DNA of 64,000 bases. Origin: an uncultured Gammaproteobacteria bacterium. GTDB taxonomy: Bacteria; Patescibacteriota; Patescibacteriia; VMEV01; CAYQCH01. The stretch is from assembly GCA_964503955.1 (NCBI GenBank), contig CAZDCG010000002.1, positions 13,047-77,046 of the forward strand. The letters run 5' to 3'. Positions 30,864 to 54,024 of this stretch are shown here, piece after piece (position 1 is the stretch's first letter; every line of letters starts with the position of its first letter). The notes beneath the pieces were generated by a model, which saw only the letters and a list, made by a program, of their open reading frames with translations, did not search any database and had not been told where the DNA came from. The position numbers and the translations under genes are program-made.

Positions 30864-32477
30864 ATGCGAAGTTTGAAGCCCCATTTGCGCGGCTTTGCCG
30901 GGTACCTGATACTCGCGATTGTTGTGCTCATTGGCGCAAACGCTGTCTTTAACACCCCTGCCTTGGCGCAGGTAGATGTTGGATTGGAGCAGGCTGAGCA
31001 GATTGGACTTACAGGAACCGATCCTCGACTCATTGTCGCTCGCATTATTCAAGTAGCCCTCGGCGTGCTGGGTATCACCGCCGTGGGGCTTCTTATTTAT
31101 GCGGGCTTTTTGTGGATGACATCCGGCGGGGAAGACGAAAAAGTCGGCCGAGCAAAGACGCTTTTGCGAAATGCGTTGATCGGCTTGATCCTGATTCTGT
31201 CCGCATTTGCCATCGTGACCTATGTCTTCAGCATTTTGCGCCCTGATCTGTATTCAACGCCTCCGATCGGTTCGCGGGGAGGGATTGGCGGTATCGGAGG
31301 CGGCGGAGGTTTCCCGATCGGTGTCATCTCCTCGCATTACCCGGATCGAGGACAAACCAATGTCGCGCGCAATACCAATATCATGGTGACATTCACCGAG
31401 CCGATACTTGTTGAAAGCATTATCGATAATGCCGGAACACCAGATAATCCCGCTGATGATCGTTTAAATACGGAAAACATTTTTATCCGACGTTCGGCCG
31501 ATGATCCAAATGATGGACCTTTCGTGCCGGCCGCAGCGGCTGCGTCTGAAGACGGACGTTCCTTTGTCTTTGACCCGATTGATCTTCTTGGTTCGTCTGA
31601 AGAAAACACCCTTTATACCGTCGTGCTTGGGGAAGGAATCACGACCGCGCAGGGAAGAGGCGCATTTGGAAATTTCGGTGCCTATGCATGGGAATTTGAA
31701 GTGGGAACCTTTATCGATCTTGAGCCGCCGCAGGTGGAAAGCGTGATTCCGGCGCAGAGTTCAACGCATCCTCGCAATGTCGTGGTGCAAATCAACTTTA
31801 ATGAAGCAATGAATCCGCTTACGGCCAGCGGAGAAGTAGGGGCTGGTTTTGATGCGATCTCGATCCGCCAAGCGGACGGCAGCGTCGTGGAAGGCCGATA
31901 CATGATCAGCAATCAGTATCGGACCGTCGAATTTATCACCAATGATTTGTGCGGGAAGAATTCCTGCGGCGAAGACGTGTTTTGTTTGCCCGGAGATGCC
32001 GCACTGACAGCTCTCCTGCGTGCGGCGACAATCAGTTTGTCACCCCCTACGGCGGCTTTTCCATATGACGGATTAACGGATGCGGCGGCAAATTCGCTCG
32101 ACGGAAATCTTGACGGTTCCGCGCAAGGTCCGCAAACGGATAATTATACCTGGTCGTTTCAAACAACCAATCAAATCGATTTGACCGCGCCGGTTATTGT
32201 CTCGGTATCGCCAAATCCATTTTCTACCCAGGTCGATCTGAATGCTCCGGTTACGGCAACTTTCAGCAAACCGCTTCAATTCAGCACCATCAACCGTAAA
32301 TCGGTGAGCGTGGACGGCCTGGAAGATTACCGGTTGAATGCCAGTTCGCAAGGCGGGCAATCTCGTATCGACATTCTGCATCGAGGGCTTTTGGAAGAGA
32401 CAACCTATACGCCGGTTGTGACATCAGATGTTCGCGATCTTTATCAGAATTGTTATCGCCCTTGTGTCGGTCCTTAA
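30864..32477 (+). CDS. Surface protein with an N-terminal T4SS-pilin-like two-helix domain and SbsA-type Ig-like repeats
   Basis: Signal peptide, then IIQVALGVLGITAVGLLIYAGFLWMTSGGEDEKVGRAKTLLRNALIGLILILSAFAIVTYVF (the hydrophobic-SGG-KAK-hydrophobic pattern of CPR VirB2/TrbC-like pilin domains). Gly-rich linker GGIGGIGGGGG. At least three repeats of the PPxVxSVxPxxxxxxVxxxxxIxxxFxExM type. Confidence 0.6.
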   Translation: MRSLKPHLRGFAGYLILAIVVLIGANAVFNTPALAQVDVGLEQAEQIGLTGTDPRLIVARIIQVALGVLGITAVGLLIYAGFLWMTSGGEDEKVGRAKTLLRNALIGLILILSAFAIVTYVFSILRPDLYSTPPIGSRGGIGGIGGGGGFPIGVISSHYPDRGQTNVARNTNIMVTFTEPILVESIIDNAGTPDNPADDRLNTENIFIRRSADDPNDGPFVPAAAAASEDGRSFVFDPIDLLGSSEENTLYTVVLGEGITTAQGRGAFGNFGAYAWEFEVGTFIDLEPPQVESVIPAQSSTHPRNVVVQINFNEAMNPLTASGEVGAGFDAISIRQADGSVVEGRYMISNQYRTVEFITNDLCGKNSCGEDVFCLPGDAALTALLRAATISLSPPTAAFPYDGLTDAAANSLDGNLDGSAQGPQTDNYTWSFQTTNQIDLTAPVIVSVSPNPFSTQVDLNAPVTATFSKPLQFSTINRKSVSVDGLEDYRLNASSQGGQSRIDILHRGLLEETTYTPVVTSDVRDLYQNCYRPCVGP

Positions 32478-32480
32478 CCT

Positions 32481-35400
32481 ATGAAGCGGATTTTGCTGAC
32501 CATTTTCATCGCGCTTTCCTTCTTTCTTCCTGCTTCCTCCGTTCTGGCGCAGGAAGCGGGGGCGGATTCTCCTGTTGAAACCGTCGTCCAGGAAACATCA
32601 TCGGTAAGCACCGGCTGGAGAGTTGCGCAGATTATCGCGCTGGCCGGGGCCGTCATCAGCCTTGGCATGCTGATTTACGGGGCGGTGTTGTGGCGCAATG
32701 CCGTGCAGAATAATGATTTGCTCATGGCCGACCGCGGCCGTAATCTAACCGTCTTGTTCGGTATCGTTTTTTTCCTGTTCCTTGTTCTATTGCTTATCAG
32801 CTTTGTGGTAATTGCGCGCCAGCAGTCGCGCCAGACGGAGCAACAGCAGCAAATACAAACAACCGGTACCGGCGGATTGAGCGTTCGGGACTCACTCTTG
32901 CTTGTTGAGGCGATTCCAAATTCCGCGGTTCCTATCCGCAATGTTGCTGTTCAGCTGCTGTTCAACCAACCCGTCAGTCAGATCAATGTAGAACAGCATA
33001 TTTTGGTATCAGCGCAAGAAGGAGAAGGACCGGTGGTCGGAACCTGGACCGTGGAAGGGGAATATGCCGTCTTTCAGCCGAATCAAGCCTGTCCCGCGCC
33101 CAATCAGAATCTGCGCTGTTTTGATGCCAACCAAACCTTTGTTGTGACTATTGCACAGGAATTGACGAGCGAAGACGGGGATGCGTTCCGTTGCTCGCTT
33201 GCCGCATCTTCCGAGCAATGCCGGTTTACCTTCACGACGGGAGAAGCGGTTGATTCCACCCCTCCGACGGCGCGCATCTCCTTGCCGCTCAATGATGCCG
33301 CGGTGGCTCAGGATTCCGCGCAGCAGGTAGAAGCGCTGGCAAGCGACGATCTGGCGGTGGCTTCCTTGCACTTCTTCGCGGATGGAGAACGAATCGGCGT
33401 ATCAGCCGCGCCGGGCAATGAGTTGCAAACTTCTTTTCGGGCATCCGCCATTTGGTTGACGGAAGGGCTCGCCATTGGATCGATGCATACGATCCGGGCG
33501 GTTGCGTATGATTTCGCCGGCAGAACGGGCGAAGCAGTGCCCGTGCAGGTGGAAATTCTTCCCGCTTACTGTTTTGACGGCCAGCAGAATGAAGACGAAG
33601 AAGGGCTTGATTGCGGAGGGCCGACCTGCCGCGCCTGCCAGGGAGCGGTCTGCAGCAGCAATGAGGATTGCGCATCAGGACTTTGCTTTAACGGTGTCTG
33701 TCAGGAATTCCCGGTGATTGAAGAAGTGATTTATCCAAACGGCGCTCCGGGAAACCTTGTGACGATTCGCGGGAAGAATTTCGGATCCGAGCCTGGATCC
33801 GTGATTTTCCTTGGAGGAGCCAGTGATGCGGATAATGTACCGGGGCAGCTTCCGCCATGCGAAGCATATTGGACGAATCAGGAAGTCATTATCGAGGTTC
33901 CAGCAGGAGCTGTCAGCGGGCCGCTTCGGCTTGAAACGGCACAGGCGCTCTACGATACCACCGACGACAGCAAAGGAGAGCGCGTTGTATTTGAAGTAAA
34001 CGATCTTGTCCGTCCAACGCTCTGCGCTGTTTTGCCGCCTTCGCAACAGGTGGGGCGATCTGTTCAGATTATCGGCAAAGCGCTTGGCGAGGAACCTGGC
34101 AAGGTCTTCTTCGGACAGAATGCCGCCAGCCGCGTTCAGGGCTGGGCCGATGACATCATTTCAGAAGTTTTTCTACCATCCATGCAGGCAGGTCCGGTTT
34201 CGGTCAGCGTGGAAGCGGCTGGAGAACGAAGCAATCCTGTGCACTTCCTTGTGCAGGAATCCGATACATTGCCGTTCATTGAATCGATCACGCCTGACCG
34301 CGGACCTGTCGGACAAATGTTCAGTCTGCGCGGGCGGCATTTCACCGCATCCGCGCTGGTTCGTTTTCTTGATCCGCGGACTGGGGAAACCATCCTTGCT
34401 GATACGCGATTGCCCCGGGAATGCGAGCAATATATTTCCAATCAGCAGCGCGCGTATCGCGTGCCAAATCTCGAACCGGGAACATATCAGGTTTATCTCG
34501 AAACGGAAATCGGCCAAAGCAATAGCGTTGATTTTGTGGTCACCCGCGGAGAACGCCTGCCAGGCCTTTGCGGCATGACACCGGACAATGGCCCGCTTGG
34601 CATTGAGGTCACGCTGCACGGAGAAGGGTTTGGAAGCCAAGCCGGCGCCGTGCGGTTCACTCCGCGCATTGATGACACGCAAATTCTTTCCTGGCGCGAT
34701 AACCGCGTGCAGGCGGTTGTGCCTGCGACAGCACAGTCAGGTCCTGTACAGGTTGTGAACGCGGCGGGCGCTTTAAGCAATGCTTTGGATTTCACCATTG
34801 GAACCTGCAGCCCGGATACATGCTCTGAAGGTCTTGTTTGTTGCGGCTCAGGCTCATGCCAGGCAGCCGGCAGCTGTGCGCAGAATATTCCATACTGTTC
34901 GTATCAATGGGTCTTTAGCACAGGTGATGATCTTGGCGGGCCTCCACGGGTGATTGAAGACGCTTCCTGCAGAAGCAATACGCAAAGCCCTTCTCCGTAT
35001 AAAGACACAAAAGACGCATGTTTGAACGCGCAAATCTCGGCGCGGTTTACCCACGACATGCTCGACAACTCGCTTTCAACCGACAATATCGTTGTACATC
35101 GCTGCAATACCGGCGACTTGCTTGATTCATCTCAATGCCAGGTCGAGGTCAATCTTGCGAGTCTCACCATCATCAATGCGGGACAACCAGGCGAGGGATT
35201 CATTGCCGCGCCGCAGGTCGCTCTTGAACCGGATACCTGGTACGAAGTTGTGCTCAGCACCGGGTTTACGGCTGAAAACGGGCTATCCATGGCATCACCG
35301 TATCGTTGGGTCTTTAAAACGCAGGTGGGAGACGGCCAATGCCAGGTCGATCATATCGAAGTTACACCAGCGTCCGCCACGCTCAGGCAGCTGCTTGATC

Positions 35401-37427
35401 GACAATCCTATGCTGCTCTTCCGATCGCTTTGAATTGCAATATTCTGAATCCTGATGAATTCACCTGGGGATGGCTGAGTTCGGACACCTCAAAAGCGCA
35501 AGTATTCTTCTCAAACGAGCCTCGAAATACGGCCACGGCCGTTGGACCAACTGATCCAGAACCGCCGGTACGCATCATTGGCCAATTGCCTGAATATGGG
35601 CTTTCTGATGAAGGACTTCTTACCGTGCGTTTGCAGCCGCCGCTGGTTGTGAACAAATGGCCGAATTGCGGCTCTGCCTGCGTGAATGCAATGATCGGTG
35701 CTCGCTTTGATCAAGCCATGAATGAATCTTCCGTGACCAACACGGCCAATGTTCAGCTATTCCGTTGTGCGGATCGCACCTGCGCTCGAGAGGGGATGGT
35801 TTCATCCGGGGTTTCTTCTCTGCGGTATAACCAAACCGATCAATCCCTCTTTTTCCTGCCGGCAGCCGGCGCTCTTGCTCAGAACACAACCTATCGCGTG
35901 GTTTTAAAGAATCTGACCAGCACCAGCGGCTTGGGATTAGGAAACCTCAATTATGACAGCGATGAGACAAGGGGGCTCGACAGTTATTCCTGGGTTTTCA
36001 GCGTGAGAGACAGCGCGGACCTTTGCACGGTTGAGGATGTCGCGGTGATCCCTTCTTTTGCTTCTTCTTCACTGATTGGTGAAGAATTCGATTATTTCTC
36101 TTTGCCGCTCTCTCCGCCGGATGCCTGCAGTCCTGAAGGACAATACCTCAATCCGGAAGCATATAACTGGGGATGGGCTTCCAGCCAGGCTGCGGTTGGA
36201 ACCGTGAGCACGGACGATATTGTTCCTCCTTCAGGATTCGTCGATCCGTATCAGATCACGAGAAGTACAGGACCTGGAGAAACTTCCATTACGGCACGCA
36301 CGCAGGACGCGAGCGGTGACGGCGATTTGCTTGTTGCCTGCGGATTCCAATCCGATCTTGATTGTCCGGCTCCGGCAACCGTGGATACCTTTGGCGTCGG
36401 CTCGGATTCCTGCTGCCGCGAGCGTCCAAGTGTGCGTTCATTCAATCCGCCTTCCGGATCAGAATCTGTTTGCACGACGCTTGGTATCGAGGTGCAATTC
36501 AACCAGGAAATGAATATCAGTTCCTTGCTCAGCAATATAGTCCTTGAGCGTTTCAACGGCTCGCAGCCATGCGCCGCGGTGCAGACAACCGCCTGGCAGA
36601 GAATGAAGGGGGTTGTGCATCGACTGCTTGCCTGGATGCTTCCGCCGGCATCAGCGCAGACTGAACATTGGTGTCAGATCCCTGCCAATATTGTGGTTAC
36701 GCAATACCTGGAAGGTTCCAGAGCGACCGTTTTTCCTCAATCTGAACTTGCGCAAAATACGCAATACCGTGTGCGCGTACAGGGGGATGCGGCCATCAAT
36801 GACGGAGTGAATCAGGGAGTAAGAAGCGCCTTTGATGTTTCCATGAATGGCGATGCCGTAAGCCTGTTCAGCACGGGCGAGGCGAAATGTAATCTTGATC
36901 TTGTTGATGTGATCATCACACCTCCGGGGAAACCTGGTTCAAAAGATGTCTTCTTCTGCGCGGTTCGCAACGATTGTCCGGGGGACGTGAATCCGGCAGT
37001 AGACGGCAATCAGCATCGATATGTTGCTGTTGGGCGCGATTTACGAGGTTTTGTCGTGCCAGGCAATTACCGATGGACAACAAACTCCGGCTCATTGGCC
37101 GGCTTGAACGCAACCGACCAGCAGGAGGTTGAAGTCAGCACGCAGCCGGAAAACGGAAATGCTTATGTTACCGTTCACGCGAACGCGGTGGCACCATCGG
37201 AGGGAAGCGTTTCGCGAACCGTCATGATCAAAATCTTCCTCTGTGAAAATCCATGGCCAAGCATTCTCGATTTCCCGTATACCGACTTCGATTTCAACTA
37301 TGATACATTCTACTGCCGCGATTTTGGCGAACCTGGTGTTTTCGATGACCTTCCTCCGCTCTCATCGCCGATTGTCGGAGACGCGGTAGGGGGCTTCCTG
37401 CACGAACGATTATTCATTGTTGAATGA
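32481..37427 (+). CDS. Giant 1648-aa surface protein with an N-terminal pilin-like domain, at least three IPT/TIG domains, Ig-like domains and a Cys-rich module
   Basis: N-terminus VAQIIALAGAVISLGMLIYGAVLWRNA...LFGIVFFLFLVLLLISFVVIA. IPT/TIG-like units VIEEVIYPNGAPGNLVTIRGKNFG, IESITPDRGPVGQMFSLRGRHF and LCGMTPDNGPLGIEVTLHGEGFG. Cys-rich block CFDGQQNEDEEGLDCGGPTCRACQGAVCSSNEDCASGLCFNGVCQ. Confidence 0.65.
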   Translation: MKRILLTIFIALSFFLPASSVLAQEAGADSPVETVVQETSSVSTGWRVAQIIALAGAVISLGMLIYGAVLWRNAVQNNDLLMADRGRNLTVLFGIVFFLFLVLLLISFVVIARQQSRQTEQQQQIQTTGTGGLSVRDSLLLVEAIPNSAVPIRNVAVQLLFNQPVSQINVEQHILVSAQEGEGPVVGTWTVEGEYAVFQPNQACPAPNQNLRCFDANQTFVVTIAQELTSEDGDAFRCSLAASSEQCRFTFTTGEAVDSTPPTARISLPLNDAAVAQDSAQQVEALASDDLAVASLHFFADGERIGVSAAPGNELQTSFRASAIWLTEGLAIGSMHTIRAVAYDFAGRTGEAVPVQVEILPAYCFDGQQNEDEEGLDCGGPTCRACQGAVCSSNEDCASGLCFNGVCQEFPVIEEVIYPNGAPGNLVTIRGKNFGSEPGSVIFLGGASDADNVPGQLPPCEAYWTNQEVIIEVPAGAVSGPLRLETAQALYDTTDDSKGERVVFEVNDLVRPTLCAVLPPSQQVGRSVQIIGKALGEEPGKVFFGQNAASRVQGWADDIISEVFLPSMQAGPVSVSVEAAGERSNPVHFLVQESDTLPFIESITPDRGPVGQMFSLRGRHFTASALVRFLDPRTGETILADTRLPRECEQYISNQQRAYRVPNLEPGTYQVYLETEIGQSNSVDFVVTRGERLPGLCGMTPDNGPLGIEVTLHGEGFGSQAGAVRFTPRIDDTQILSWRDNRVQAVVPATAQSGPVQVVNAAGALSNALDFTIGTCSPDTCSEGLVCCGSGSCQAAGSCAQNIPYCSYQWVFSTGDDLGGPPRVIEDASCRSNTQSPSPYKDTKDACLNAQISARFTHDMLDNSLSTDNIVVHRCNTGDLLDSSQCQVEVNLASLTIINAGQPGEGFIAAPQVALEPDTWYEVVLSTGFTAENGLSMASPYRWVFKTQVGDGQCQVDHIEVTPASATLRQLLDRQSYAALPIALNCNILNPDEFTWGWLSSDTSKAQVFFSNEPRNTATAVGPTDPEPPVRIIGQLPEYGLSDEGLLTVRLQPPLVVNKWPNCGSACVNAMIGARFDQAMNESSVTNTANVQLFRCADRTCAREGMVSSGVSSLRYNQTDQSLFFLPAAGALAQNTTYRVVLKNLTSTSGLGLGNLNYDSDETRGLDSYSWVFSVRDSADLCTVEDVAVIPSFASSSLIGEEFDYFSLPLSPPDACSPEGQYLNPEAYNWGWASSQAAVGTVSTDDIVPPSGFVDPYQITRSTGPGETSITARTQDASGDGDLLVACGFQSDLDCPAPATVDTFGVGSDSCCRERPSVRSFNPPSGSESVCTTLGIEVQFNQEMNISSLLSNIVLERFNGSQPCAAVQTTAWQRMKGVVHRLLAWMLPPASAQTEHWCQIPANIVVTQYLEGSRATVFPQSELAQNTQYRVRVQGDAAINDGVNQGVRSAFDVSMNGDAVSLFSTGEAKCNLDLVDVIITPPGKPGSKDVFFCAVRNDCPGDVNPAVDGNQHRYVAVGRDLRGFVVPGNYRWTTNSGSLAGLNATDQQEVEVSTQPENGNAYVTVHANAVAPSEGSVSRTVMIKIFLCENPWPSILDFPYTDFDFNYDTFYCRDFGEPGVFDDLPPLSSPIVGDAVGGFLHERLFIVE

Positions 37428-37478
37428 TATTTCGTGATGCATGGAACTTTGGTATCATAGAAAGATGAAATCATTCTT

Positions 37479-40124
37479 ATGAAACGACTTTTCTTTTTCT
37501 TCGCCTTCGCGCTGCTCGCAGCACTTCCATTCGCGAATGCTCACGCGCAATCCGGTCCGCGCGACGCGATCGCCATACGCGTGGTCCCAAATCCGGATCG
37601 CATGCCGCCGCTTTTGTGGTATCGAAACAATGTCCCAAATCCCGGAGCTCCTGTTCCGCTCGAGATTGACGGATATCCTGCCGTGCGCGACGGGCGGACG
37701 GTTTACGTGGCTGCAACCAATTACGCACCTGAAGCCGGCGCGCTTTATAGTAATATCTACCTCATTTCACATAGCGAAGCGGCAGGGGAGAAGGTGCAGG
37801 CGGTTTTTGAAGAATTTCTACAGGAATTCAGATTCAACTCTAATATCGCCGATGATGAGACCCGGGCGCAGCTGCGCCGCGATATGAGGCGAGCCAATGA
37901 TCTTTATGCGATCCGGTTGAACCTGGAGCAATACCGCCTCAGAACAGGCTCGTATCCAAACTTTGAAGCGGGCAGCTATCTGCCAAATACCACGTATAGC
38001 ACGTGGCCGTCATGGCAAACGACATTAGGCAATTTGCTAGGAACTGCCTTGCCGGTTGATCCTCGCAACCAGTTTATCGGGTGTGAAGCGCCTTTTGACG
38101 GTTCAACCTGCTGGGATCAGACCGCCAGACAATTTGCTTGTCCGCCGCAAGCGTACGTGTACGGATACCGTGCAACAGGAAGCGGCGCGACCTATCAGCT
38201 ATTTGCGAATTACGAGTACAAGGGGCCTGGCAATTGGCAATCCGTTACATTGCAGCAGCAATCAGGCGACCAGTGTTTCAATTTCGCTTTTTCAGACGTT
38301 TCAGACCCTGACGGAGATGGAATCCTAACAGGAGCGGATAATTGTGAATTTGAGCATAACCCAGATCAAACTGACAGTGATGCCGACGGCATTGGCGACG
38401 CATGCGATCTCTGCCCGAATGATCCCACCAATGACCGCGATAGTGACGGTATTTGCGGCAATATCGACAATTGTCCGACGATTGGCAATCCGTCTCAGGC
38501 GGATCTTGATGATGACGGAATCGGCGATGCCTGTGATTTTCAAGGATGCGGGAACAATGTCACCGAAGGATCCGAGGTCTGCGACGGTCAGTCCGGCATC
38601 GGACCGTTTCAAAGCTGCTCCGCTGATTGCCGGTCGGTTATCCAGCTCAGTTATTGCGGCGACGGGGTGGTCAACAATCCCAATGACCAGGGACTTTTTG
38701 AAGAGTGCGATGGCAATAGTGAAGAAATCATCTGCGAACAGCGGATCAACGGCTATGTAACGCAGCGCCGAAGAGAGTGCCGCGATACCTGCCGGTTTAC
38801 GCCATTTACTGCTTGCGAACCGATTGAATATGCGGGAGACGGTATTGTTAACGGATTTGAACAATGCGACGCAGGCGATCAAAACGGTGTTCAGTGCCAG
38901 GCTGCTTATGATCAGACCTGCCAATACTGCACTTCCGATGGACGTTTTGAATTGGCTCAAGGACCAACATGCGGCGATGGAATCGTTAATGGACCGGAGC
39001 AATGTGATGAAGGCGTGAACAATGGACGCGTTTGCACGCCCGCCTATGGAAGAACGTGTACGTATTGCGGCAACTCCTGCCGCATCGAAACGGTTCCGGC
39101 TCCATTCTGCGGGGACGGGACAAGAAATATTCCGTTTGAAGAATGCGATTCTGAAGAGGAGGATATCCCTTGTGAATCGCCGCCGGGGTATTTATATAAA
39201 AAACGCTTTTGCGCCACGCAATCAACCGCTTCGAATGTCGCCTGCAGCTGGCTGCCATTTGAAGCCTGCCGCTCGATCGGTTCCTGCGGAGACGGCATGA
39301 TCAATGGTCCGGAACCATGCGATGATGCCAAAACACCTGGCTTATGTGAACAATGCAAGATCAAGGATAATACAGTGAGCCTTACCTACAATATCGAAGG
39401 GACGAGAATCGCTTCAGCATGCGTGGGCAAAAAATCAGCCTGGCCGACAAATTTCCGCTTTGGAGGAGCTATCCCATTGACAACCGCAGAATTGAATCAA
39501 ACCTGTAATAATGCGGCAATCATCAATCCCTTTACCCGGGATGGGCAGCCATTCAGTTCTCCTTGGGGATGGCCAAGAAACGGCATGCTTTCTACGCTTC
39601 CGATTTCTATGAGGGTGGAAACTATTTTCTGGCAGCATTGGAATTGCGGCGCGCATTTTGTTGCATTGCGAAATTCCGGCGTTGAGGTAACGAGCTCGCC
39701 GTTCCATGTTCCAAAACAGGGAAAACATTGCTCAAATGACTGGCAAGTTCAGGTTGTAGACACTGGCGGCGTAACAGCCGACCAAATCCTGGCGGATGAA
39801 AGCGGTTCCCAGCCAGGCCATCTCCCGGGAGGAATCCTTAAGGGGTACTACCAGTTCGGGCAGACGAGATCGATTCGAACGTCTGATCGCATCGTCGTGC
39901 TGGAGCGTCTTTCTGAACGCAGAGATACCATGGGAAATCTGCTGCCGAATGATACATATAAACTTCTCAGCACTAGCGGCAATGGATTCATGGTCTGGTT
40001 TGGAAATACCGCCACAACGCTTGCAAGCCAGGGAAGCTCTTCCACGCCAAATACCAGCACTTTCGTACTCGGCTGCGTAGATTTCGACAATAATCGCACT
40101 TGTGACTTCATGCAGGAACTATGA
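37479..40124 (+). CDS. Secreted 881-aa protein with thrombospondin type-3 calcium-binding repeats and CGDG...CD cysteine-rich repeats
   Basis: Signal peptide MKRLFFFFAFALLAALPFANAHA. TSP3-like units DPDGDGILTGADNCEFEHNPDQTDSDADGIGDACDLCPNDPTNDRDSDGICGNIDNCPTIGNPSQADLDDDGIGDACD. At least six repeats of the CGDG(V/I/T)xNxxExCD type. Confidence 0.65.
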   Translation: MKRLFFFFAFALLAALPFANAHAQSGPRDAIAIRVVPNPDRMPPLLWYRNNVPNPGAPVPLEIDGYPAVRDGRTVYVAATNYAPEAGALYSNIYLISHSEAAGEKVQAVFEEFLQEFRFNSNIADDETRAQLRRDMRRANDLYAIRLNLEQYRLRTGSYPNFEAGSYLPNTTYSTWPSWQTTLGNLLGTALPVDPRNQFIGCEAPFDGSTCWDQTARQFACPPQAYVYGYRATGSGATYQLFANYEYKGPGNWQSVTLQQQSGDQCFNFAFSDVSDPDGDGILTGADNCEFEHNPDQTDSDADGIGDACDLCPNDPTNDRDSDGICGNIDNCPTIGNPSQADLDDDGIGDACDFQGCGNNVTEGSEVCDGQSGIGPFQSCSADCRSVIQLSYCGDGVVNNPNDQGLFEECDGNSEEIICEQRINGYVTQRRRECRDTCRFTPFTACEPIEYAGDGIVNGFEQCDAGDQNGVQCQAAYDQTCQYCTSDGRFELAQGPTCGDGIVNGPEQCDEGVNNGRVCTPAYGRTCTYCGNSCRIETVPAPFCGDGTRNIPFEECDSEEEDIPCESPPGYLYKKRFCATQSTASNVACSWLPFEACRSIGSCGDGMINGPEPCDDAKTPGLCEQCKIKDNTVSLTYNIEGTRIASACVGKKSAWPTNFRFGGAIPLTTAELNQTCNNAAIINPFTRDGQPFSSPWGWPRNGMLSTLPISMRVETIFWQHWNCGAHFVALRNSGVEVTSSPFHVPKQGKHCSNDWQVQVVDTGGVTADQILADESGSQPGHLPGGILKGYYQFGQTRSIRTSDRIVVLERLSERRDTMGNLLPNDTYKLLSTSGNGFMVWFGNTATTLASQGSSSTPNTSTFVLGCVDFDNNRTCDFMQEL

Positions 40125-40738
40125 AAAAGCCTCTTCTGATTGTGCTATCAATACTGCTTCTGGGCGGTGCGTACATGGGATACAAAGAAATCCGCCGTAT
40201 GCGTTTGCTCAGCTCGGGGCGCGATGTCCTAGTGGTAAACAAGAAGGCAGGAACCTATTCCTTTACCAGCTTGATGGAATCAGACGATATTACGAGAGCT
40301 TACAAAGCGATTGGTTATACGGAGGAACTTTCCGAGGAGAAAATTCAAAAACGGATTGGCGGGCTTACTCTCATTGGTACAAAGTTCGATCCGATTCCGC
40401 CGGAATCAATCGCGGTTGTGCCCAATGCCTTTCAGCAGGATGCCTGGAGCAATGCCTTGCAGGTACTTACGTCTGAGCAGCGGGAGTTGTGCGATCAGCT
40501 GGGAAGATCAGAAGATGTGCAATCCTGCCTTTTTCGTCATTACATCTCGCAATTGCTGGCCACGCAGAATGTGGAAGGTTGCAAGGCTATTTTTGTTGAA
40601 GCATTCGTCCAGGAATGTGAAAACGTCGTCTCCCAAAATCTCCAAAACGCCGTTTATGATGCGGATAACGACCATTTGATTGATCAGTACGAATTCAAAG
40701 CTGATCCGGAATCATTTGAAGCGGATCCATTAGGATAA
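40121..40738 (+). CDS. Membrane-anchored protein with a C-terminal EF-hand-like loop
   Basis: N-terminal TM LLIVLSILLLGGAYMGY. C-terminal DADNDHLIDQYE fits the 12-residue EF-hand loop pattern (D-x-D-x-D...I...E). Its start overlaps the stop of the 881-aa gene by 4 nt. Confidence 0.45.
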   Translation: MKKPLLIVLSILLLGGAYMGYKEIRRMRLLSSGRDVLVVNKKAGTYSFTSLMESDDITRAYKAIGYTEELSEEKIQKRIGGLTLIGTKFDPIPPESIAVVPNAFQQDAWSNALQVLTSEQRELCDQLGRSEDVQSCLFRHYISQLLATQNVEGCKAIFVEAFVQECENVVSQNLQNAVYDADNDHLIDQYEFKADPESFEADPLG

Positions 40739-40764
40739 GCAAGTTCCTTTGCTGTGAAAAATCC

Positions 40765-40770
40765 TTTATA
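40765..40770 (+). promoter_or_regulatory. Perfect TATAAT -10 hexamer upstream of the 40801 gene
   Basis: cctttataatgc lies 30 nt upstream of the ATG. No clear -35. Confidence 0.25.
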
Positions 40771-40800
40771 ATGCATTTACTGTCGCCTTAAACGAATTCT

Positions 40801-41424
40801 ATGTTCGACGATCAACCACAAAGAGAACCGGAAGACATTTTTTCCAATACGGACCCGTTGCAGAATCCTGCCGGTCAAAACCCGGTTCAGTCAAACCAGG
40901 TTCCACCGGCTCCAGCTCCTCAACTTACACCAGAACCTCCAAGCGGGGGCAATAAAATGGTCGTGGTCGCGATCATCGTCATCGCTGCCGTCCTCTTGTT
41001 GATTGCCGTTCTGGTCGGCCTATGGCTTGTGCGAAGAGGTGAATCCGTTCAGCAGCCTGTCCAAAATCAGCAGACACAGCAGGAAGCAACGAATAATGAG
41101 ACAAATACTTCTGAGCAGCTATCAGAAGCTCAGCAGGAAACGCAATTGCCTGCGGTTCCGGTTGATACTGACGGCGATGGATTAAGCGACGAAGAAGAGC
41201 GCGTACTTGGCACCTCGCCGATCGCGGCAGACAGCGACCAGGACGGATTGAATGATTATGAAGAGGTCATGGTCTGGAATACGGATCCTCTCAATCCTGA
41301 CACGGATGGAGACACGTATTCAGACGGCCAGGAAGTAAGCTCCGGCTACGATCCAAATCAGGAAGGAGCACGTTTGCTCGAGTTAAACGGCGCAACGACA
41401 TTGCCAGCACCTGTCAATCAATAA
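40801..41424 (+). CDS. Single-pass membrane protein with a Q-rich spacer and three DxDxDG calcium-binding-type repeats
   Basis: Pro/Gln-rich cytoplasmic N-terminus. TM VVVAIIVIAAVLLLIAVLVGLWLV. Repeats VDTDGDGLSDEEE, DSDQDGLNDYEE and DTDGDTYSDGQE. Confidence 0.5.
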   Translation: MFDDQPQREPEDIFSNTDPLQNPAGQNPVQSNQVPPAPAPQLTPEPPSGGNKMVVVAIIVIAAVLLLIAVLVGLWLVRRGESVQQPVQNQQTQQEATNNETNTSEQLSEAQQETQLPAVPVDTDGDGLSDEEERVLGTSPIAADSDQDGLNDYEEVMVWNTDPLNPDTDGDTYSDGQEVSSGYDPNQEGARLLELNGATTLPAPVNQ

Positions 41425-41427
41425 TGT

Positions 41428-42414
41428 ATGGACGAACGAAACAACAGTTTGATCCCCTCCTCAGGAATGGGATCCCTTGATGGACGCATCAGCGTGATGC
41501 CACAGGCTTATTTGCCGAAAACATCGTCAGGGCTTTCCACAAAAGCGCTGTTGTTTATTCTTGGCGGTCTTATTGTCGTGGCGCTCATTGTTGTTATTGC
41601 TGTTCTGCTGGTTAGCCAATCAAGAGAAGCGGCACAGCTCGCTGCTCAGCAGCAAGTTCAGCAGCCGGCGCAAACGCAGACCAGTCAGCCAACCCAGCCA
41701 GTTCAGGAAAGCACGCAGACAACCGAGCAGCCGTCCTCTCCAATCCAACAGGTTGATACAACGCAGGAACCACAAAATCAAATTGTTTTGCCAGACATTT
41801 TCGCAAGCGTGGCCCTGCCGGCTGTCGACACCGACCAGGACGGTCTGACTGATCTTGAAGAACAGCTCTTTGCCACCAGCCCCGCTGTTCCGGATACCGA
41901 TCAGGATGGATTCCTTGATGGCTCAGAGCTTCTTAATTTGTATGATCCAGCAAGTCCTCGCGCGCTTCTAGAGATTTCGCCGCAGATCAAGATTGCCAGA
42001 AATGATTCAAGGGGCTTTCAATTCTATATTCCTGTTTCCTGGACGGCTTCAAAACAAACCCCTGACGGACGCCTGTTCACGGTTCTGCCTGATTCTGGAG
42101 ATCAGCAGTTCAGCTTTTCAACCTATGATAATCCGGATCGATTATCAGCGGTTCAGTGGTATCAGGCCAATAATCCGGGCGCAGATTTAAATCAGTTTGT
42201 GAATTTCAGCAATGAGGCCGGCTGGGTGGGAATCCAGTCCCGTGATTCGCGCCTGATTATCGCCACCTTTGGAGAATCAGGGGCAGGGGCGCGCGCATTC
42301 ATTTTCGTCATGCATTATGATACTGGCGCGTCAAACGTCCTTGAGTATGCGAGCGTCTGGCAGATGATGGCCAACAGCGTAACGGTCGCGGACACGTCCA
42401 CGGTTACTCCATAG
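41428..42414 (+). CDS. Paralogous single-pass membrane protein with a Q-rich spacer, two DTDQDG repeats and a C-terminal domain of about 150 aa
   Basis: TM LLFILGGLIVVALIVVIAVLLV. Q-rich low-complexity stretch. VDTDQDGLTDLEEQ and DTDQDGFLDGSE repeats. Same architecture as the preceding gene. Confidence 0.5.
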   Translation: MDERNNSLIPSSGMGSLDGRISVMPQAYLPKTSSGLSTKALLFILGGLIVVALIVVIAVLLVSQSREAAQLAAQQQVQQPAQTQTSQPTQPVQESTQTTEQPSSPIQQVDTTQEPQNQIVLPDIFASVALPAVDTDQDGLTDLEEQLFATSPAVPDTDQDGFLDGSELLNLYDPASPRALLEISPQIKIARNDSRGFQFYIPVSWTASKQTPDGRLFTVLPDSGDQQFSFSTYDNPDRLSAVQWYQANNPGADLNQFVNFSNEAGWVGIQSRDSRLIIATFGESGAGARAFIFVMHYDTGASNVLEYASVWQMMANSVTVADTSTVTP

Positions 42415-42416
42415 CT

Positions 42417-42905
42417 ATGGCAAAGCGGATCTCGGTTGATCTTGTGAAAAAGACGCGCGTCGGTTATCAGACCGACGTTTCTTCTTATGCGAAAAAAATC
42501 GTCAGCAGCAAGGCGATGCCTTCAAGATTGAACAGATTTCAGAAGTTTTCCGTTGAGCTGATTCTGGTTGACGACAAAGAAATCCAAATCTTGAACAAAC
42601 GTTATCGAAAAAAAAATAAACCGACCGACGTACTCTCTTTTGCGTACTGGCAGGATGCAGATCCAAAGCTTGATCCCGTTTGTTTCCTGGGGCAGATCAT
42701 TATCAGCTCGGATACTCTTCGCCGGCAAGCAAAAGCGCAGGGACATGCCTATAGGACCGAATTGGGCATCCTTTTTGTCCACGGTCTTTTGCATATACTG
42801 GGCTTTGATCATGAAACAGAAAAAGAGCTAAAAACCATGCTGGAAATGGAGCGAATTTTCCTTGGGGATAACGCCGGCCTTATCGCACGCAGCAGGCTTG
42901 AGTAA
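42417..42905 (+). CDS. ybeY: rRNA maturation endoribonuclease YbeY
   Basis: HGLLHILGFDHE zinc-binding motif (H-x3-H-x5-H). Confidence 0.88.
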   Translation: MAKRISVDLVKKTRVGYQTDVSSYAKKIVSSKAMPSRLNRFQKFSVELILVDDKEIQILNKRYRKKNKPTDVLSFAYWQDADPKLDPVCFLGQIIISSDTLRRQAKAQGHAYRTELGILFVHGLLHILGFDHETEKELKTMLEMERIFLGDNAGLIARSRLE

Positions 42906-42992
42906 GATACGTATTCAGAGGGAAACAAGGTCTTTCGTGCTGAGCAGAATCTGTGTTCAGGCTGCCGTATTGGCAGAGCTTTTCTGAACACT

Positions 42993-42998
42993 TATAAT
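42993..42998 (+). promoter_or_regulatory. TATAAT -10 hexamer upstream of ftsA
   Basis: acacttataatgtcac lies about 60 nt upstream of the ftsA ATG. Confidence 0.25.
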
Positions 42999-43060
42999 GT
43001 CACTATGCAAGATCTCGCTGTTTCTCATAAGCCTGGTCTTTACCGTTATCGAACACACAA

Positions 43061-44314
43061 ATGCAACGCGGAGATATCATCACTGGTTTAGATGTCGGAT
43101 CAACCATGATCCGGCTGGTGGTAGGTGAACTGGTTGACGACGGAACGGGAGAATCTACCAACCTGCACATTATCGGAGTCGCGGAGACCCCTGCTCTTGG
43201 CATTAACAAGGGTGTTGTCACAAGCATTGAAGATGCGGTCTCAAGCCTGACAGCCTGTCTCGAAAAAGGAGAGCGCATGGCAGGCGTGCCTCTTGAACGC
43301 GCCTATGTCAGTATTTCCGGCGCGCATATCATCTCCCAGCCATCTAAAGGCGTGATCGCCGTTTCAAAAGCGAACGGGGAAATCAACCAGGATGATGTGG
43401 AACGCGTGGTGGAAGCCGCTCAGGCCGTTGCCACACCTCCAAATTACGAAATTTTGCATGTTGTTCCGCGTTCGTACACGGTTGATAATCAGACAAGCAT
43501 CAAGGACCCTGTCGGCATGACCGGCGTGCGATTGGAAGTGGAGGCCCAGATCATTCAGGGATTGTCCGCGCAGATCAAAAATCTGACCAAGGCCGTGTAT
43601 CGAACAGGAGTGGACATTGAAGATCTTGTTTTTGGCGCCCTTGCGGCAGCCGAAAGCACGCTTGATAAGCAGCAGAAAGAGCTTGGCGTGGCTCTGGTTA
43701 ATATCGGCGGCGCGACCACGAGCCTCGTCGTTATTGAAGAGGGCGACGTGCTCCACACGGCGGTTCTGCCGATCGGGGCGGGGCATATCACTTCCGATAT
43801 TGCAATCGGGCTTCGCACGTCTATTGAAGTGGCGGAACAAGTGAAAATCCAATATGGAACAGCTCTGCCTGAGACCGTCGATAAAAAGGAAATGATTGAT
43901 TTGAGTGAATTTCAGGAAGCAGAAACCCAAATGATTTCGCGAAAACAGGTGGCGGAAATCATTGAAGCGCGCATTGAGGAGATTTTTAAACTCGTCAATA
44001 AAGAGCTGAAAAAGATCAACCGAAGCGGATTGCTGCCAGCCGGCGTCGTGCTCACCGGCGGCGGTGCAAGACTCACGGGCATTACCGAAGTTGCCAAACG
44101 CGAATTTCGTTTGCCCGCATCCATTGGCATCCCCCGCGATGTCACAACCGCCATTGAGAAGGTCAATGATCCGATGTTTTCTGTCTGTGTAGGGCTGCTT
44201 ATGTGGGGATCCCAGGATCTTGAAGCCTCATCCCGCCGTTCGCTCCCATCCTTCAAAAATCTTGGTGCCTGGGGCGACAAAGTGAAAGGCTGGGTGAAAT
44301 CATTAATTCCGTAA
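43061..44314 (+). CDS. ftsA: Cell division protein FtsA
   Basis: Actin-fold motifs (GLDVGSTMIRLVVGE, VNIGGATTSLVV). Position upstream of ftsZ. Confidence 0.92.
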   Translation: MQRGDIITGLDVGSTMIRLVVGELVDDGTGESTNLHIIGVAETPALGINKGVVTSIEDAVSSLTACLEKGERMAGVPLERAYVSISGAHIISQPSKGVIAVSKANGEINQDDVERVVEAAQAVATPPNYEILHVVPRSYTVDNQTSIKDPVGMTGVRLEVEAQIIQGLSAQIKNLTKAVYRTGVDIEDLVFGALAAAESTLDKQQKELGVALVNIGGATTSLVVIEEGDVLHTAVLPIGAGHITSDIAIGLRTSIEVAEQVKIQYGTALPETVDKKEMIDLSEFQEAETQMISRKQVAEIIEARIEEIFKLVNKELKKINRSGLLPAGVVLTGGGARLTGITEVAKREFRLPASIGIPRDVTTAIEKVNDPMFSVCVGLLMWGSQDLEASSRRSLPSFKNLGAWGDKVKGWVKSLIP

Positions 44315-44380
44315 TAACAATTGACGATTGACATGCGGCCTCTGGCTTCCACAACCGTCAATGGTTGCATGTCAAAGTAA
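44312..44380. promoter_or_regulatory. Conserved ACAATTGACGATT element plus 9-bp inverted repeat (TTGACATGC / GCATGTCAA) upstream of ftsZ
   Basis: acaattgacgatt at 44317-44329 is identical to 22783-22795. ttgacatgc at 44328-44336 pairs with gcatgtcaa at 44367-44375. Confidence 0.5.
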
Positions 44381-44386
44381 ACGCGT

Positions 44387-45607
44387 ATGGAGATCAAACC
44401 GGATATCGAAACATTCGCAAAAATAAAAGTCATTGGAGTAGGGGGAAGCGGAGGATCAACCGTGAACCAGATGATCGCCTCAAAAATCAGAGGCGTGGAA
44501 TTTGTTACGATCAATACCGACGCGCAGGCTTTGCATCATTCGCGCGCGGCTGTGCGGATGCATATCGGAAAAACCATCACGCGCGGGCTTGGTGCCGGCA
44601 TGGATCCTGAAATGGGCAGAAAAGCCGCGGAAGAGAATCAGAACGAACTGCGCGAGATGCTCAAAGATACGGATATGGTATTTGTCACCTGCGGTCTTGG
44701 CGGGGGTACGGGAAGCGGTGCCGCGCCGGTTGTGGCGGGCATTGCCAAGGAGCTTGGCGCGCTGACCATCGGCGTTGTTACAAAGCCGTTTACGTTTGAA
44801 GGCAATCAGCGCCGCCAGATCGCAGAGAAAGCATACGAAGAATTATCCAGCAAGGTTGATACCATCATTTCAATTCCCAATGACCGTATTCTGCAGGTGA
44901 TCGAAAAGAGAACCAGCATGATGGAAGCCTTTGACATTGTCGACGATGTTTTGCGCCAGGGCGTGCAGGGAATCTCGGAACTCGTCACGATACACGGCGT
45001 AACCAATGTGGACTTTGCCGACGTGAAGGCGATTATGAAGGATGCAGGTTCCGCTTTGATGGGGATCGGCTATGGTTCAGGCGATAATCGCGCTGTTGAA
45101 GCGGCCAAAGCGGCCATCAACAGCCCATTGCTTGAAGTCGCTATCGACGGTGCCAAGGGAATTCTCTTCACCATCACCGGCGGCAAAGACCTTGGCATGT
45201 ATGAGCTCAATGAAGCGGCAACCATCATTACGGAAAAAGCGGATCCGAATGCCAAGATCATTTACGGAACCGTTATTGATGAAAATATGAAGGACGAGCT
45301 GCGCATTACGGTGATTGCGGCTGGATTTGGTAAACAAAAAGTTGCAAATCCTGCCAATTTCGAACGCCAGACGGCAAATTTCGGACAGAAGCTCGCAGCT
45401 GATGCGTATCAGAATCCCTTGATGAGGCTTTCGCAGCAAAAAACGGAGGATACATCTTCTACGTATCGTTCTGTCCGCGAAGAAGCCATGCAGGATCCGA
45501 TTATGACAGAGCCTGTGCGTCAGGAAGAAACCGCGACACAGCGTGTTGAAGCTGATGAGGAAGAGGATTTGGAAATCCCGGCCTTTATCCGGAAAAAAAT
45601 GATGTAG
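44387..45607 (+). CDS. ftsZ: Cell division GTPase FtsZ
   Basis: GVGGSGGSTV, tubulin signature GGGTGSGAAPVVA and NTDAQAL. Acidic C-terminal tail with a conserved EIPAFIRKK peptide. Confidence 0.97.
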   Translation: MEIKPDIETFAKIKVIGVGGSGGSTVNQMIASKIRGVEFVTINTDAQALHHSRAAVRMHIGKTITRGLGAGMDPEMGRKAAEENQNELREMLKDTDMVFVTCGLGGGTGSGAAPVVAGIAKELGALTIGVVTKPFTFEGNQRRQIAEKAYEELSSKVDTIISIPNDRILQVIEKRTSMMEAFDIVDDVLRQGVQGISELVTIHGVTNVDFADVKAIMKDAGSALMGIGYGSGDNRAVEAAKAAINSPLLEVAIDGAKGILFTITGGKDLGMYELNEAATIITEKADPNAKIIYGTVIDENMKDELRITVIAAGFGKQKVANPANFERQTANFGQKLAADAYQNPLMRLSQQKTEDTSSTYRSVREEAMQDPIMTEPVRQEETATQRVEADEEEDLEIPAFIRKKMM

Positions 45608-45717
45608 ATGCTGCCCAGACCCTCCATTAGGTTCTCGGCAAAATGAAAGCATGTCCATTTAAAGAAGAGGGCCGGAAATCGGTCCTTTTCTCGGCTAAAC
45701 CCTGTTAAGTATCAGTT

Positions 45718-46986
45718 ATGGTCAGAGGAGCGACAAAACGGCGGCGTATGGGACGGGGCGGGTATATTTTATTCAGCCTGGCCATTCTCCTGTTTGCGGG
45801 CTGGAAATTGTTCGATCCAGGCTCGCAGCATCCTGAGCCAGCACTCGCGGATCTGGCGGTGGATCAACCCACTGCTCCTTCGCAGTCCATGAAAGCTTTT
45901 TTTGATTCCTATGAAGGGCGGCACATTGTGCAAGAAGGGGATGTTCTTTCGTCGGTTTTTGCTGGTTATGAAATTCCGTTCAATGAGATTGTCGGGCTGC
46001 AAAACGCGCAGAGCGATAACTTTCGTTTTACAAATATCCAGGTAGGCAAAACCGTGTATTTTTCTTTGTATCCAGAGGGAAGCGACTTGGTCTTAAAGGA
46101 GGTCGTGTACCAGCCGGATTCGTTGCGCATCATCAAAGCCAAGCAGACTGTCACGGGCTGGATTATTGAGGAAGAAATGATTCCGTATGAAACCAGAGTG
46201 GGGCAGCGCGCCGGCACCGTGCAGGAATCATTGTATGTCTCCGCTCTCCGGCAGGGGGTTGATGAAAAAGTCATTCTCGCTTTTGCCGATGTCTTTGCCT
46301 GGGATATCGATTTTGCCTTGCAGACGCGCTCAGGTGACGCATACAAGGTTATTTACGAGGAGCGATATCTGGATGGAGAGTTGGTTACAACAGGAAGAGT
46401 CCTTGCGGCTGAATACACGAATAAGGGGACGGTGTATCGCGCCTTCTTCTTTCAGGAAGGAGAAAAGAGAGGCTATTTTGATGAGGAGGGAAATGCCTTG
46501 CAAAAAGCGTTCCTAAAAGCCCCGGTCAATTACCGTTATGTAACATCCGGGTTCACCTCAGCTCGGTTCCATCCGATTCTTGGCTCCGTAATGCCTCATA
46601 ACGGCGTTGATTATGCCGCAGCTTATGGCACGCCGATTATTGCGGTGGCCGATGGAATTGTTTCACGCTCCGGCTGGCAGACTGGCTATGGAAACCGCAT
46701 CGAGCTAAAACATGGGGATCGGTATGGAACACAGTATTCACATATGTCAGCCTATGTGCCGGGCCTGTCCGTGGGCGATGCGGTCAAACAAGGCGATGTG
46801 ATCGGTTATGTCGGGTCAACCGGCTACTCCACCGGGAACCATGTCCACTATTCCGTAACGGATCGCGGAAGCTATGTGGATCCTTCATCAATCGATGTTC
46901 CGGACGGAGAACCGGTTTCCGATCAATACCGGGAGGAGTTCGATGCCATGGTCGCACAGCGTTTGAGCGAGCTTGAATCTCTGTAA
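45718..46986 (+). CDS. M23 family metalloendopeptidase (membrane-anchored)
   Basis: N-terminal TM. C-terminal HNGVDYAA...GNHVHY M23 zinc-ligand motifs. Confidence 0.85.
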   Translation: MVRGATKRRRMGRGGYILFSLAILLFAGWKLFDPGSQHPEPALADLAVDQPTAPSQSMKAFFDSYEGRHIVQEGDVLSSVFAGYEIPFNEIVGLQNAQSDNFRFTNIQVGKTVYFSLYPEGSDLVLKEVVYQPDSLRIIKAKQTVTGWIIEEEMIPYETRVGQRAGTVQESLYVSALRQGVDEKVILAFADVFAWDIDFALQTRSGDAYKVIYEERYLDGELVTTGRVLAAEYTNKGTVYRAFFFQEGEKRGYFDEEGNALQKAFLKAPVNYRYVTSGFTSARFHPILGSVMPHNGVDYAAAYGTPIIAVADGIVSRSGWQTGYGNRIELKHGDRYGTQYSHMSAYVPGLSVGDAVKQGDVIGYVGSTGYSTGNHVHYSVTDRGSYVDPSSIDVPDGEPVSDQYREEFDAMVAQRLSELESL

Positions 46987-50549: not shown

Positions 50550-50817
50550 GGGCCTACCTTTCAGATTGGCCCCCCCAACAAGTGTTTCCCACATGACAAC
50601 TGAAGAAAGAACGCGCATCTCCGTTTGCTTTCACAATCAGAACCCTGCGATCACCTGGAGATGCTGAAAAAGCGTAACAGGAACATTGAATTCTTGTCAA
50701 TTGGTGACGATAGTGTTTGAAAGAGAAAGAAAGGCTAATGTCAGCAAAATTTGACGACAGTTTGCAAAAAGTGCCTATTCACCCAAAAAAACAATGTTTT
50801 TGCGATCTTGGGTCATG

Positions 50818-53974: not shown

Positions 53975-54024
53975 AATTTGCTATACTATCAACAGCCCAC
54001 ACCCTTGTTCAAGGGTGTTTTTAT

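Follow-up and report, generated by a model that had tools for sequence, protein, structure and literature searches.

An open reading frame (ORF) on the forward strand of the 64-kb stretch of DNA analysed here (the window), which comes from an uncultivated bacterium of the Patescibacteria, or candidate phyla radiation (CPR), encodes a Sec-exported modular surface protein of 881 amino acids (aa) without an anchor. Alignment with the giant genes of related genomes indicates that this protein, the target of the present analysis, is the distal segment of a membrane-anchored giant, the proximal part of which would be the 1648-aa protein encoded just upstream. We favour the reading, at a probability of roughly 0.55, that it forms the outer arm of this split surface giant, a stalk stiffened by Ca2+ and disulfides that presents a swappable binding head. 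An earlier note on the same DNA had described at this place a secreted protein combining thrombospondin type 3 (TSP3) repeats with cysteine-rich CGDG…CD repeats; both are there, and the repeat region lies wholly inside the single ORF. The description omitted an N-terminal domain (the N-module) and a C-terminal β-rich domain that flank the repeats, as well as the status of the protein as the split-off part of a giant.

The evidence for the split comes from four relatives (L026, L045, L052 and L061) in which one ORF is colinear with the 1648-aa protein through residue 1648 and, about six residues on, is aligned to the target from residue 28/29 to about residues 564-616. Residue 28/29 marks the first residues after the target's signal peptide. 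Because single ORFs align to both proteins in succession, the two genes of the window can be regarded as the split form of one giant. A gap of 51 nucleotides (nt) without a convincing terminator separates them, and scans for promoters and terminators around the cluster gave nothing better than shuffles. About 20 full-length orthologues (50-57% identity to the target), as well as L003-L006 and L008, have the split form too, again with a separate signal peptide.

The earlier note was right to call the protein secreted: it begins with a Sec signal peptide (aa 1-23, MKRLFFFFAFALLAALPFANAHA, ending in ANAHA before QS), in which the sole hydrophobic segment is followed by an A-H-A motif, and the orthologues have equivalent N-termini ending in A-x-AQ. 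A topology and motif scan of the whole protein found no second transmembrane segment and no LPxTG. The 46 cysteines are distributed over all modules: the N-module has 4, the TSP3 block 6, the CGDG block 30 and the C-terminal domain 6.

The TSP3 block consists of four calcium-type DxDxDGxxDxxD loops, DPDGDGILTGAD (aa 276-287), DSDADGIGDACD (aa 299-310), DRDSDGICGNID (aa 319-330) and DLDDDGIGDACD (aa 342-353), flanked by DNC and NxxQ. They span nt 38304-38537, which bears out the four TSP3 units proposed for about nt 38300-38540, and the hidden Markov model (HMM) Pfam TSP_3 (PF02412; cut-off 25) gives 37.7 bits for the whole protein and, in three stretches, 47.3 bits for the isolated block. It matches 24 of 24 family members. 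Since Pfam parses the block as one to three TSP_3 stretches, "four units" is to be read as four calcium loops, or as two pairs of N-type and C-type repeats. A phmmer search against the sequences of the PDB returned only COMP (3fby), TSP-2 (1yo8, 2rhp) and TSP-1 (1ux6), with E-values from 4.5e-22 to 2e-14; the alignments run residue by residue to COMP and TSP-2, agree at every Asp, Asn and Cys position and are essentially limited to aa 276-354, with a single weak stretch (0.33) that extends to aa 374. In 24 sequences the Asp, Asn, Gly and Cys positions of the loops are invariant.

Ca2+ binding is an established property of the TSP3 repeat in COMP and the thrombospondins, and by analogy the loops of the target probably bind Ca2+ as well. 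The likeness to the thrombospondin/COMP "calcium wire" extends to the loops, the NxxQ/DNC flanks and the cysteine positions, with about 50% identity per repeat, and the block presumably forms Ca2+-wrapped, disulfide-stapled loops as it does there; the AlphaFold2 (AF2) model shows neither helices nor strands in this part. Unlike the metazoan thrombospondins, in which the signature domain has thirteen loops, the target has four loops only and stands in a bacterial context. Pfam detected neither the C-terminal lectin-like domain (TSP_C) nor EGF in the target, and no coiled coil was detected in it either. It is thus a protein that contains TSP3 repeats and not a member of the thrombospondin family. 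Bacterial surface proteins commonly carry TSP3 repeats, among them those of the MtsC and Omp28-related NCBIfam models; the matches of the target to MtsC and to an Omp28-related selenoprotein arise via the repeats alone, lie far under the cut-offs and were rejected.

The second repeat block comprises six CGDG…E-x-CD units (U1 to U6), in agreement with the at least six expected, and runs over nt 38547-39368, a little past the 39330/39340 at which the earlier note had ended it. Both repeat strings quoted in that note are present (aa 498-512 and aa 603-616). A C-G-D…E-x-C-D skeleton is invariant in the 24-sequence alignment, around which the units vary. The count of cysteine spacings gives a four-cysteine pattern for U1 (C-x10-C-x11-C-x3-C) and a six-cysteine pattern for U4 (C-x10-C-x9-C-x7-C-x2-C-x3-C); U3 and U4 are six-cysteine variants of 46 aa, and long inserts are present in U2 and U5, each 59 aa in length. 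The proposed match to the Myxococcus repeat family TIGR02232 stands with a caveat. The whole protein stays under the cut-offs of TIGR02232 (15.6 against 20.8 bits) and of DUF4215 (PF13948; 14.8 against 27), but the isolated 275-aa block exceeds both (31.5 and 29.5 bits), with the DUF4215 alignment covering positions 17-47 on U6. Across the family TIGR02232 is matched by 17 of 24 members at E ≤ 0.01 (best 2.2e-12) and DUF4215 by 5 of 24, and among nine relatives scanned singly the TIGR02232 cut-off is exceeded by P0005 (24.9 bits) and P0026 (46.5 bits). The target and the Myxococcus repeat have a C-G-[DN]-G-x5-6-E-x-C-D start in common; they differ in that the alignment takes in just the first half of the model, in the six-cysteine U3 and U4 and in the inserted U2 and U5. 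The units therefore appear, on sequence grounds, to be divergent sub-types of the TIGR02232/DUF4215 repeat. Neither a function nor a solved structure was found for this family in the literature or by phmmer and unit-profile searches of the PDB, and neither phmmer with the block nor a profile of 22 unit sequences found a sequence relative of the block in the PDB. The same searches returned no ADAM or snake-venom disintegrin chain and no pappalysin-1 (PAPP-A) chain at E ≤ 10; such a kinship, considered because of a likeness of "CGNG…EECD" to these proteins, is rejected.

In a six-frame translation of the window, all six matches to a CGDG-type regular expression and both matches to a strict TSP3-type one fall inside the target ORF, and 50 codon shuffles of the window gave no match to either. 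When the residues of aa 271-632 were shuffled 2,000 times with the composition of this region preserved (9.9% Cys, 11.6% Asp and 11.9% Gly), the mean number of matches was 0.002 for the CGDG type and 0.004 for the TSP3 type.

The orthologues in related genomes for which the earlier note had called bear on the disulfides. All 46 cysteines of the target are conserved in 19 full-length orthologues, C723 at 95%. In U3 the first cysteine (C452→A) and the last (C488→G) are jointly lost, and this only in the window protein (P0001), P0012 and P0020, which makes 3 of 20 canonical units; both cysteines are retained in all the others. Since the two are lost together, this points to a disulfide between the first and the sixth cysteine in the unit-3 type, and it is the first natural covariation evidence for a first-to-last disulfide in a DUF4215-type unit, from a family without a solved structure. 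Beyond this pair we infer the disulfide map: the even total of cysteines and their 4/6/30/6 split between modules fit 23 disulfides, and 15 would be expected in the CGDG block. The large Ca2+-stabilised, disulfide-rich scaffold that had been suggested is consistent with the invariant Asp and Cys positions.

The C-terminal domain is the candidate binding head. It is the least conserved part of the protein: the orthologues have 28% identity to the window protein over aa 631-760 and 44% over aa 761-881, compared with 59-69% over the N-module, the TSP3 block and all six units. It is also rare: it has no Pfam or PDB sequence match, and among 1.84 billion representative sequences it gave 11 matches, the five strong ones being an 883-aa orthologue and four short partial sequences that cover this domain. 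The distant matches are secreted proteins of small size; their copy of the domain closes with aCvD-x-[DN]-x-N-x-x-CDF (GCVD-x-D-x-N-x-x-CDF in the target), and DNDGDG-type repeats come after it. In P0128-P0130, P0132 and L085, which come from other organisms, the β-domain is N-terminal and is followed by repeated C-x-DG-x-DNDGDG-x-x-DFP-x-DPGC; a 2689-aa protein with 13 DUF7933 copies (P0131) matches the domain weakly. The AF2 model predicts an all-β fold with a predicted local distance difference test score (pLDDT) of about 85. Whole-chain Foldseek returned carbohydrate-binding modules (CBM6/29/32/61/86), discoidin and neuropilin b1 with probabilities of 0.9-0.99, E-values of 1e-3 to 1e-2 and TM-scores of about 0.4; as such a search gives no aligned query range, we place these matches on the C-terminal domain by inference. 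Fibre-plus-head proteins, returned for the target from a viral structure library, are suggestive only. In its layout of repeat stalk and globular end the target resembles fibrous adhesins with a terminal head, such as surface proteins tipped with a von Willebrand A (vWA) domain and phage fibres with C1q, CBM or LamG heads; the likeness is one of layout alone, with TM-scores of at most 0.42 and no sequence relationship.

The N-module is conserved among Patescibacteria. It appears to consist of a β/α sub-domain (aa ~30-116) and a long helix (126-156) with a four-cysteine lobe; the AF2 model (pLDDT 77, predicted TM-score 0.77, one of five models confident) shows a β/α sub-domain, a 30-residue helix and a cysteine-stapled lobe. 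The module has no match in Pfam, NCBIfam or the PDB sequences, the last searched also with a profile, and none among PDB structures in Foldseek (best E 0.19). A pilin-like fold (type IV pilin or pseudopilin), suggested by a "RRDMRRANDL…YP" helix, gave no Foldseek or PDB sequence match and is rejected for now. The module is single-copy in the window. With the N-module alignment scanned against one genome per species, relatives were found in at least 127 genomes, and the informative titles among them are Kerfeld-, Buchanan-, Uhr- and Falkowbacteria, Parcubacteria and "Patescibacteria group". The module often gives two HMM matches, with an insert between the sub-domains. In most genomes it is not a separate gene: in Kerfeldbacteria (L012, L015, L025) it is the extreme C-terminus of a giant of about 1,900-2,300 aa, and elsewhere it sits inside giants 3,000-4,946 aa long, which have as many as 274 cysteines. 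In some genomes it stands alone, as a secreted protein of some 270-390 aa whose N-terminus is hydrophobic (L013, L023, L034, L049, L047 and L054).

What follows the N-module differs between lineages. In the Buchananbacteria giant L026 it is TSP_3 (27.1 bits) and then, where the target has its CGDG block, four-cysteine CGDx…E-x-CDDGN units of a more typical kind (DUF4215 26.0, just under 27). The giant L052 ends in a vWA domain (VWA E 2.2e-10; aa ~3000-3260) at the place of the target's β-domain, and L026 has at aa ~2930-3250 a DLSASM…SDG stretch that resembles a metal-ion-dependent adhesion site, with VWA below threshold (17.7 against 23.8 bits). The exact architecture of the target, from N-module through TSP3 and U1-U6 to the β-domain, is limited to close orthologues in a co-occurrence table of our own HMMs, which is a lower bound because the narrow family-specific models missed the TSP3 and DUF4215 of L026 that Pfam detects.

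Coordinates in the window of the target, its parts and the neighbouring genes
Feature	Position (nt)	Strand	Remarks
537-aa protein	30864..32477	+	signal peptide, two transmembrane helices; T4SS_pilin (PF18895) 6.4e-8, Big_5 6.2e-29
1648-aa giant	32481..37427	+	signal peptide, two transmembrane helices (VirB2/TrbC-like), 47 Cys; Big_5 3.4e-29, TIG 2e-15, weak TrbC
Target ORF	37479..40124	+	881 aa
Sec signal peptide	37479..37547	+	aa 1-23
N-module	37560..38294	+	aa 28-272; fold without known relative; orthologue identity 64-69%
TSP3 block	38304..38537	+	aa 276-353; four loops, 6 Cys
CGDG block	38547..39368	+	aa 357-630; six units, 30 Cys
U1	38547-38654	+	from aa 357; begins CGNN
U2	38655-38831	+	from aa 393
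U3	38832-38969	+	from aa 452; begins AGDG, first Cys missing
U4	38970-39107	+	from aa 498
U5	39108-39284	+	from aa 544
U6	39285-39368	+	from aa 603
C-terminal β-rich domain	39369..40121	+	aa 631-881; candidate binding head
205-aa ORF (g205)	40121-40738	+	start overlaps target stop; no family match
207-aa protein	40801-41424	+	single-pass membrane protein, TSP3_bac repeats, no Cys
328-aa protein	41428-42414	+	single-pass membrane protein, TSP3_bac repeats, no Cys

The target belongs to a conserved cluster, the order of which was followed by tblastn of the window's neighbours against 84 loci. In the window (30864-46986) and in L003-L084 the order is, preceded by signal peptidase I and histidyl-tRNA synthetase (HisRS), the VirB2-like/Big_5 protein, the TIG/Big_5 giant, the N-module, the membrane protein with TSP3_bac repeats, the homologue of the 328-aa protein, YbeY, FtsA and FtsZ. 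It is kept in about 52-69 of the 84 loci, among them Kerfeld-, Buchanan-, Uhr- and Falkowbacteria and others. The individual genes were found as follows: the pilin-like N-terminus in 55 loci, the TIG/Big_5 giant in 69, the N-module in 83, the TSP3_bac membrane protein and the 328-aa homologue, both after the N-module gene, in 64 and 61, YbeY in 56, FtsA in 55 and FtsZ in 52. The 537-aa protein is the first gene of the cluster, and its N-terminus matches those of the fused giants. As the earlier note had it, the target adjoins giants with pilin domains: PF18895 is found in the 537-aa protein, and weak TrbC with a signal peptide and two transmembrane helices in the 1648-aa protein. VirB2-like pilins (PF18895/PF04956) are widespread in Patescibacteria (PMC12102498), and the target's neighbours begin with the same signal peptide and two-helix pilin-like domain; unlike in these pilins, the domain is fused here to ectodomains that range from 400 to about 4,800 aa, and the target itself has no pilin domain. 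The two membrane proteins downstream have acidic DxDxDG repeats (TSP3_bac 5.4e-16) and Q/P-rich linkers and may be membrane partners of the secreted arm. The 205-aa ORF between them and the target is a lineage-specific addition to the cluster, since it is detectable only in the five closest loci.

The window carries genes for ATP synthase, HisRS, signal peptidase I, LytR, YbeY, FtsA, FtsZ, DnaG, RpoD, aspartyl-tRNA synthetase (AspRS) and ComEC. Its AspRS is 79% identical to the nearest relative and, among named proteins, 66% to those of Candidatus Uhrbacteria/Kerfeldbacteria and 63% to those of Parcubacteria/Patescibacteria group. Many TPA_asm records of metagenome-assembled genomes titled "uncultured Gammaproteobacteria bacterium" (L005, L006, L008, L016 and numerous others) carry this Patescibacteria-type locus, with FtsA 60-86% identical, and their titles look like placeholders or wrong taxonomy. 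On the reverse strand, a gene of the isocitrate lyase family (49254-50618; PF00463, E 1.8e-100) occupies the GC-richest stretch of the window (0.565, compared with about 0.50); such a gene is unexpected in Patescibacteria and might have been acquired horizontally or encode an enzyme of the phosphoenolpyruvate mutase/isocitrate lyase superfamily. Also on the reverse strand, a 1412-aa ORF (11701-15939) without Pfam match or signal peptide is rich in E, K, L and Q and looks like a coiled coil, and its stretch has a lower GC content (0.44-0.47) and a strong negative AT skew. About 14 kb downstream of the cluster lies the gene for a ComEC-type competence protein (53881-55500; PF03772, E 6e-46).

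We propose that the 1648-aa protein, with its VirB2-like membrane anchor, is the proximal part of the apparatus, and that the N-module is a joint which probably docks non-covalently onto its end. The four TSP3 calcium loops and the six disulfide-knotted DUF4215/TIGR02232-type units would then form a stiff, protease-resistant stalk, in which the conserved acidic positions of the C-G-D…E-x-C-D units may bind Ca2+ too, and the variable C-terminal β-domain would serve as a head that binds a ligand, most plausibly to attach the bacterium to a host cell or to a surface. In favour of this proposal count the exchange of heads (the β-domain here, vWA at the C-terminus of the fused giant L052), the recurrence of the β-domain, as a portable unit, in further secreted proteins of small size, and neighbours that are membrane proteins rich in ectodomains and calcium-type repeats. 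Several points weigh on the other side. TIGR02232 aligns to the block over model positions 2-18 of 38, the AF2 model of the repeat region reaches a pLDDT of 50-80 only, and the likeness of the β-domain to carbohydrate-binding and discoidin β-sandwiches is weak (E about 1e-3, TM-score about 0.4) and suggestive at most. Docking of the N-module onto the 1648-aa protein is deduced from the logic of fusion and fission, and the adhesive role, in which the head would bind a ligand on a host cell or surface, is putative. Finally, the location of the locus beside ybeY-ftsA-ftsZ in most genomes would also fit a housekeeping role in the envelope.

Such a role could be that of a scaffold associated with the envelope or with division, a surface layer or septum structure made for the cell itself, in which the repeats form a rigid Ca2+-bridged lattice. 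The cluster is tied to the three genes in 52-56 of 84 loci across many Patescibacteria classes, the N-module and the repeats reach the level of conservation of core proteins (about 60-69% identity), and the downstream partners are membrane proteins with calcium-type repeats. However, streamlined genomes can keep gene order without a functional link, and the distal domain varies strongly and is swapped from lineage to lineage (β-domain, vWA or none at all), a pattern that typifies tips which bind ligands rather than lattice proteins; we consider the scaffold unlikely, if worth keeping in mind. The pilin-like N-termini invite yet another explanation, in which the giants are pilin-fused proteins assembled by a type IV secretion system (T4SS) and the target is a factor at or along the VirB2-like pilus. 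For this speak PF18895 in the 537-aa protein, the TrbC-like N-terminus of the 1648-aa protein and the wide occurrence of VirB2-like pilins in Patescibacteria, but in the roughly 35 window ORFs that were scanned with Pfam, a part of all its ORFs, nothing else of a T4SS (VirB4, for instance) was matched, the Sec signal peptide of the target is an ordinary one, and the pilin-like domain may be a mere two-helix membrane anchor. A pilus accessory is to our mind distinctly improbable.

Ion binding as the main job, instead of the display of a head, would make the target a protein for sequestering Ca2+ or another metal, or a MopE-like metal-binding protein. The dense acidic loops and a distant match named "MopE-related" (P0101) would suit this; the presence of only four TSP3 loops, the modular architecture of a surface protein and the lack of a PF11617 match on the target make it very hard to sustain. 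From the single ORF that covers both proteins in other lineages one might suppose that the two ORFs of the window result from decay of a giant into a pseudogene or from faulty assembly. The split is nevertheless neither artefact nor pseudogene, because it recurs in independent assemblies and in all of the approximately 20 orthologues (50-57% identity), every one of which has a start codon and a signal peptide of its own just at the place of the linker, and all 46 cysteines are conserved. A broken gene is thus effectively refuted by conservation.

The combination of repeats, which had been called unusual for so small a genome, is not what sets the protein apart. The same order is found at the corresponding position in L026, from another class, both families (PF02412 and PF13948) occur in a Polyangiaceae protein (P0095), and cysteine-rich exoproteins are on record from the CPR, so that the co-occurrence of TSP3 and Myxococcus-type repeats is by itself ordinary. 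Exported cysteine-rich proteins of CPR Peribacteria, weakly similar to the Myxococcus repeat, have been proposed to serve in attachment (Anantharaman et al. 2016, PMC4736985). The target shares with them the signal peptide, the very high cysteine content and the weak similarity to this repeat, and is a further case of a known class of cysteine-rich exported CPR surface proteins; it is smaller because it is the distal segment only. The Peribacteria proteins differ in coming from another lineage, and their description mentions neither a conserved locus nor a gene split, an N-module or a TSP3 block. What is new is the conserved locus, the split of the gene with a signal peptide in place of the linker, and two domains without known fold or family, none of which we found described in the literature searched.

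To our knowledge, the ways in which Patescibacteria recognise and hold their hosts are largely unexplained outside a few cultivated Saccharibacteria. It is tempting to speculate, and we do so tentatively and with more doubt than confidence, that the cluster encodes a widespread, hitherto undescribed surface apparatus of the Patescibacteria and, maintained beside ftsA/ftsZ, a principal device of these episymbionts for host attachment: a VirB2-like-anchored giant, a joint of new fold, a stalk of Ca2+ loops and disulfides and an exchangeable head, on an arm that can be separated and would re-dock via the joint. More immediately, an odd repeat protein becomes a defined candidate in a conserved cluster, which comprises a giant anchored in the membrane and an arm exported on its own. 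Its domain map pinpoints in the N-module and the C-terminal domain two domains without known fold or family, and it parts the scaffold of TSP3 and DUF4215-type units from the probable determinant of specificity, the variable C-terminal domain, or vWA in relatives.

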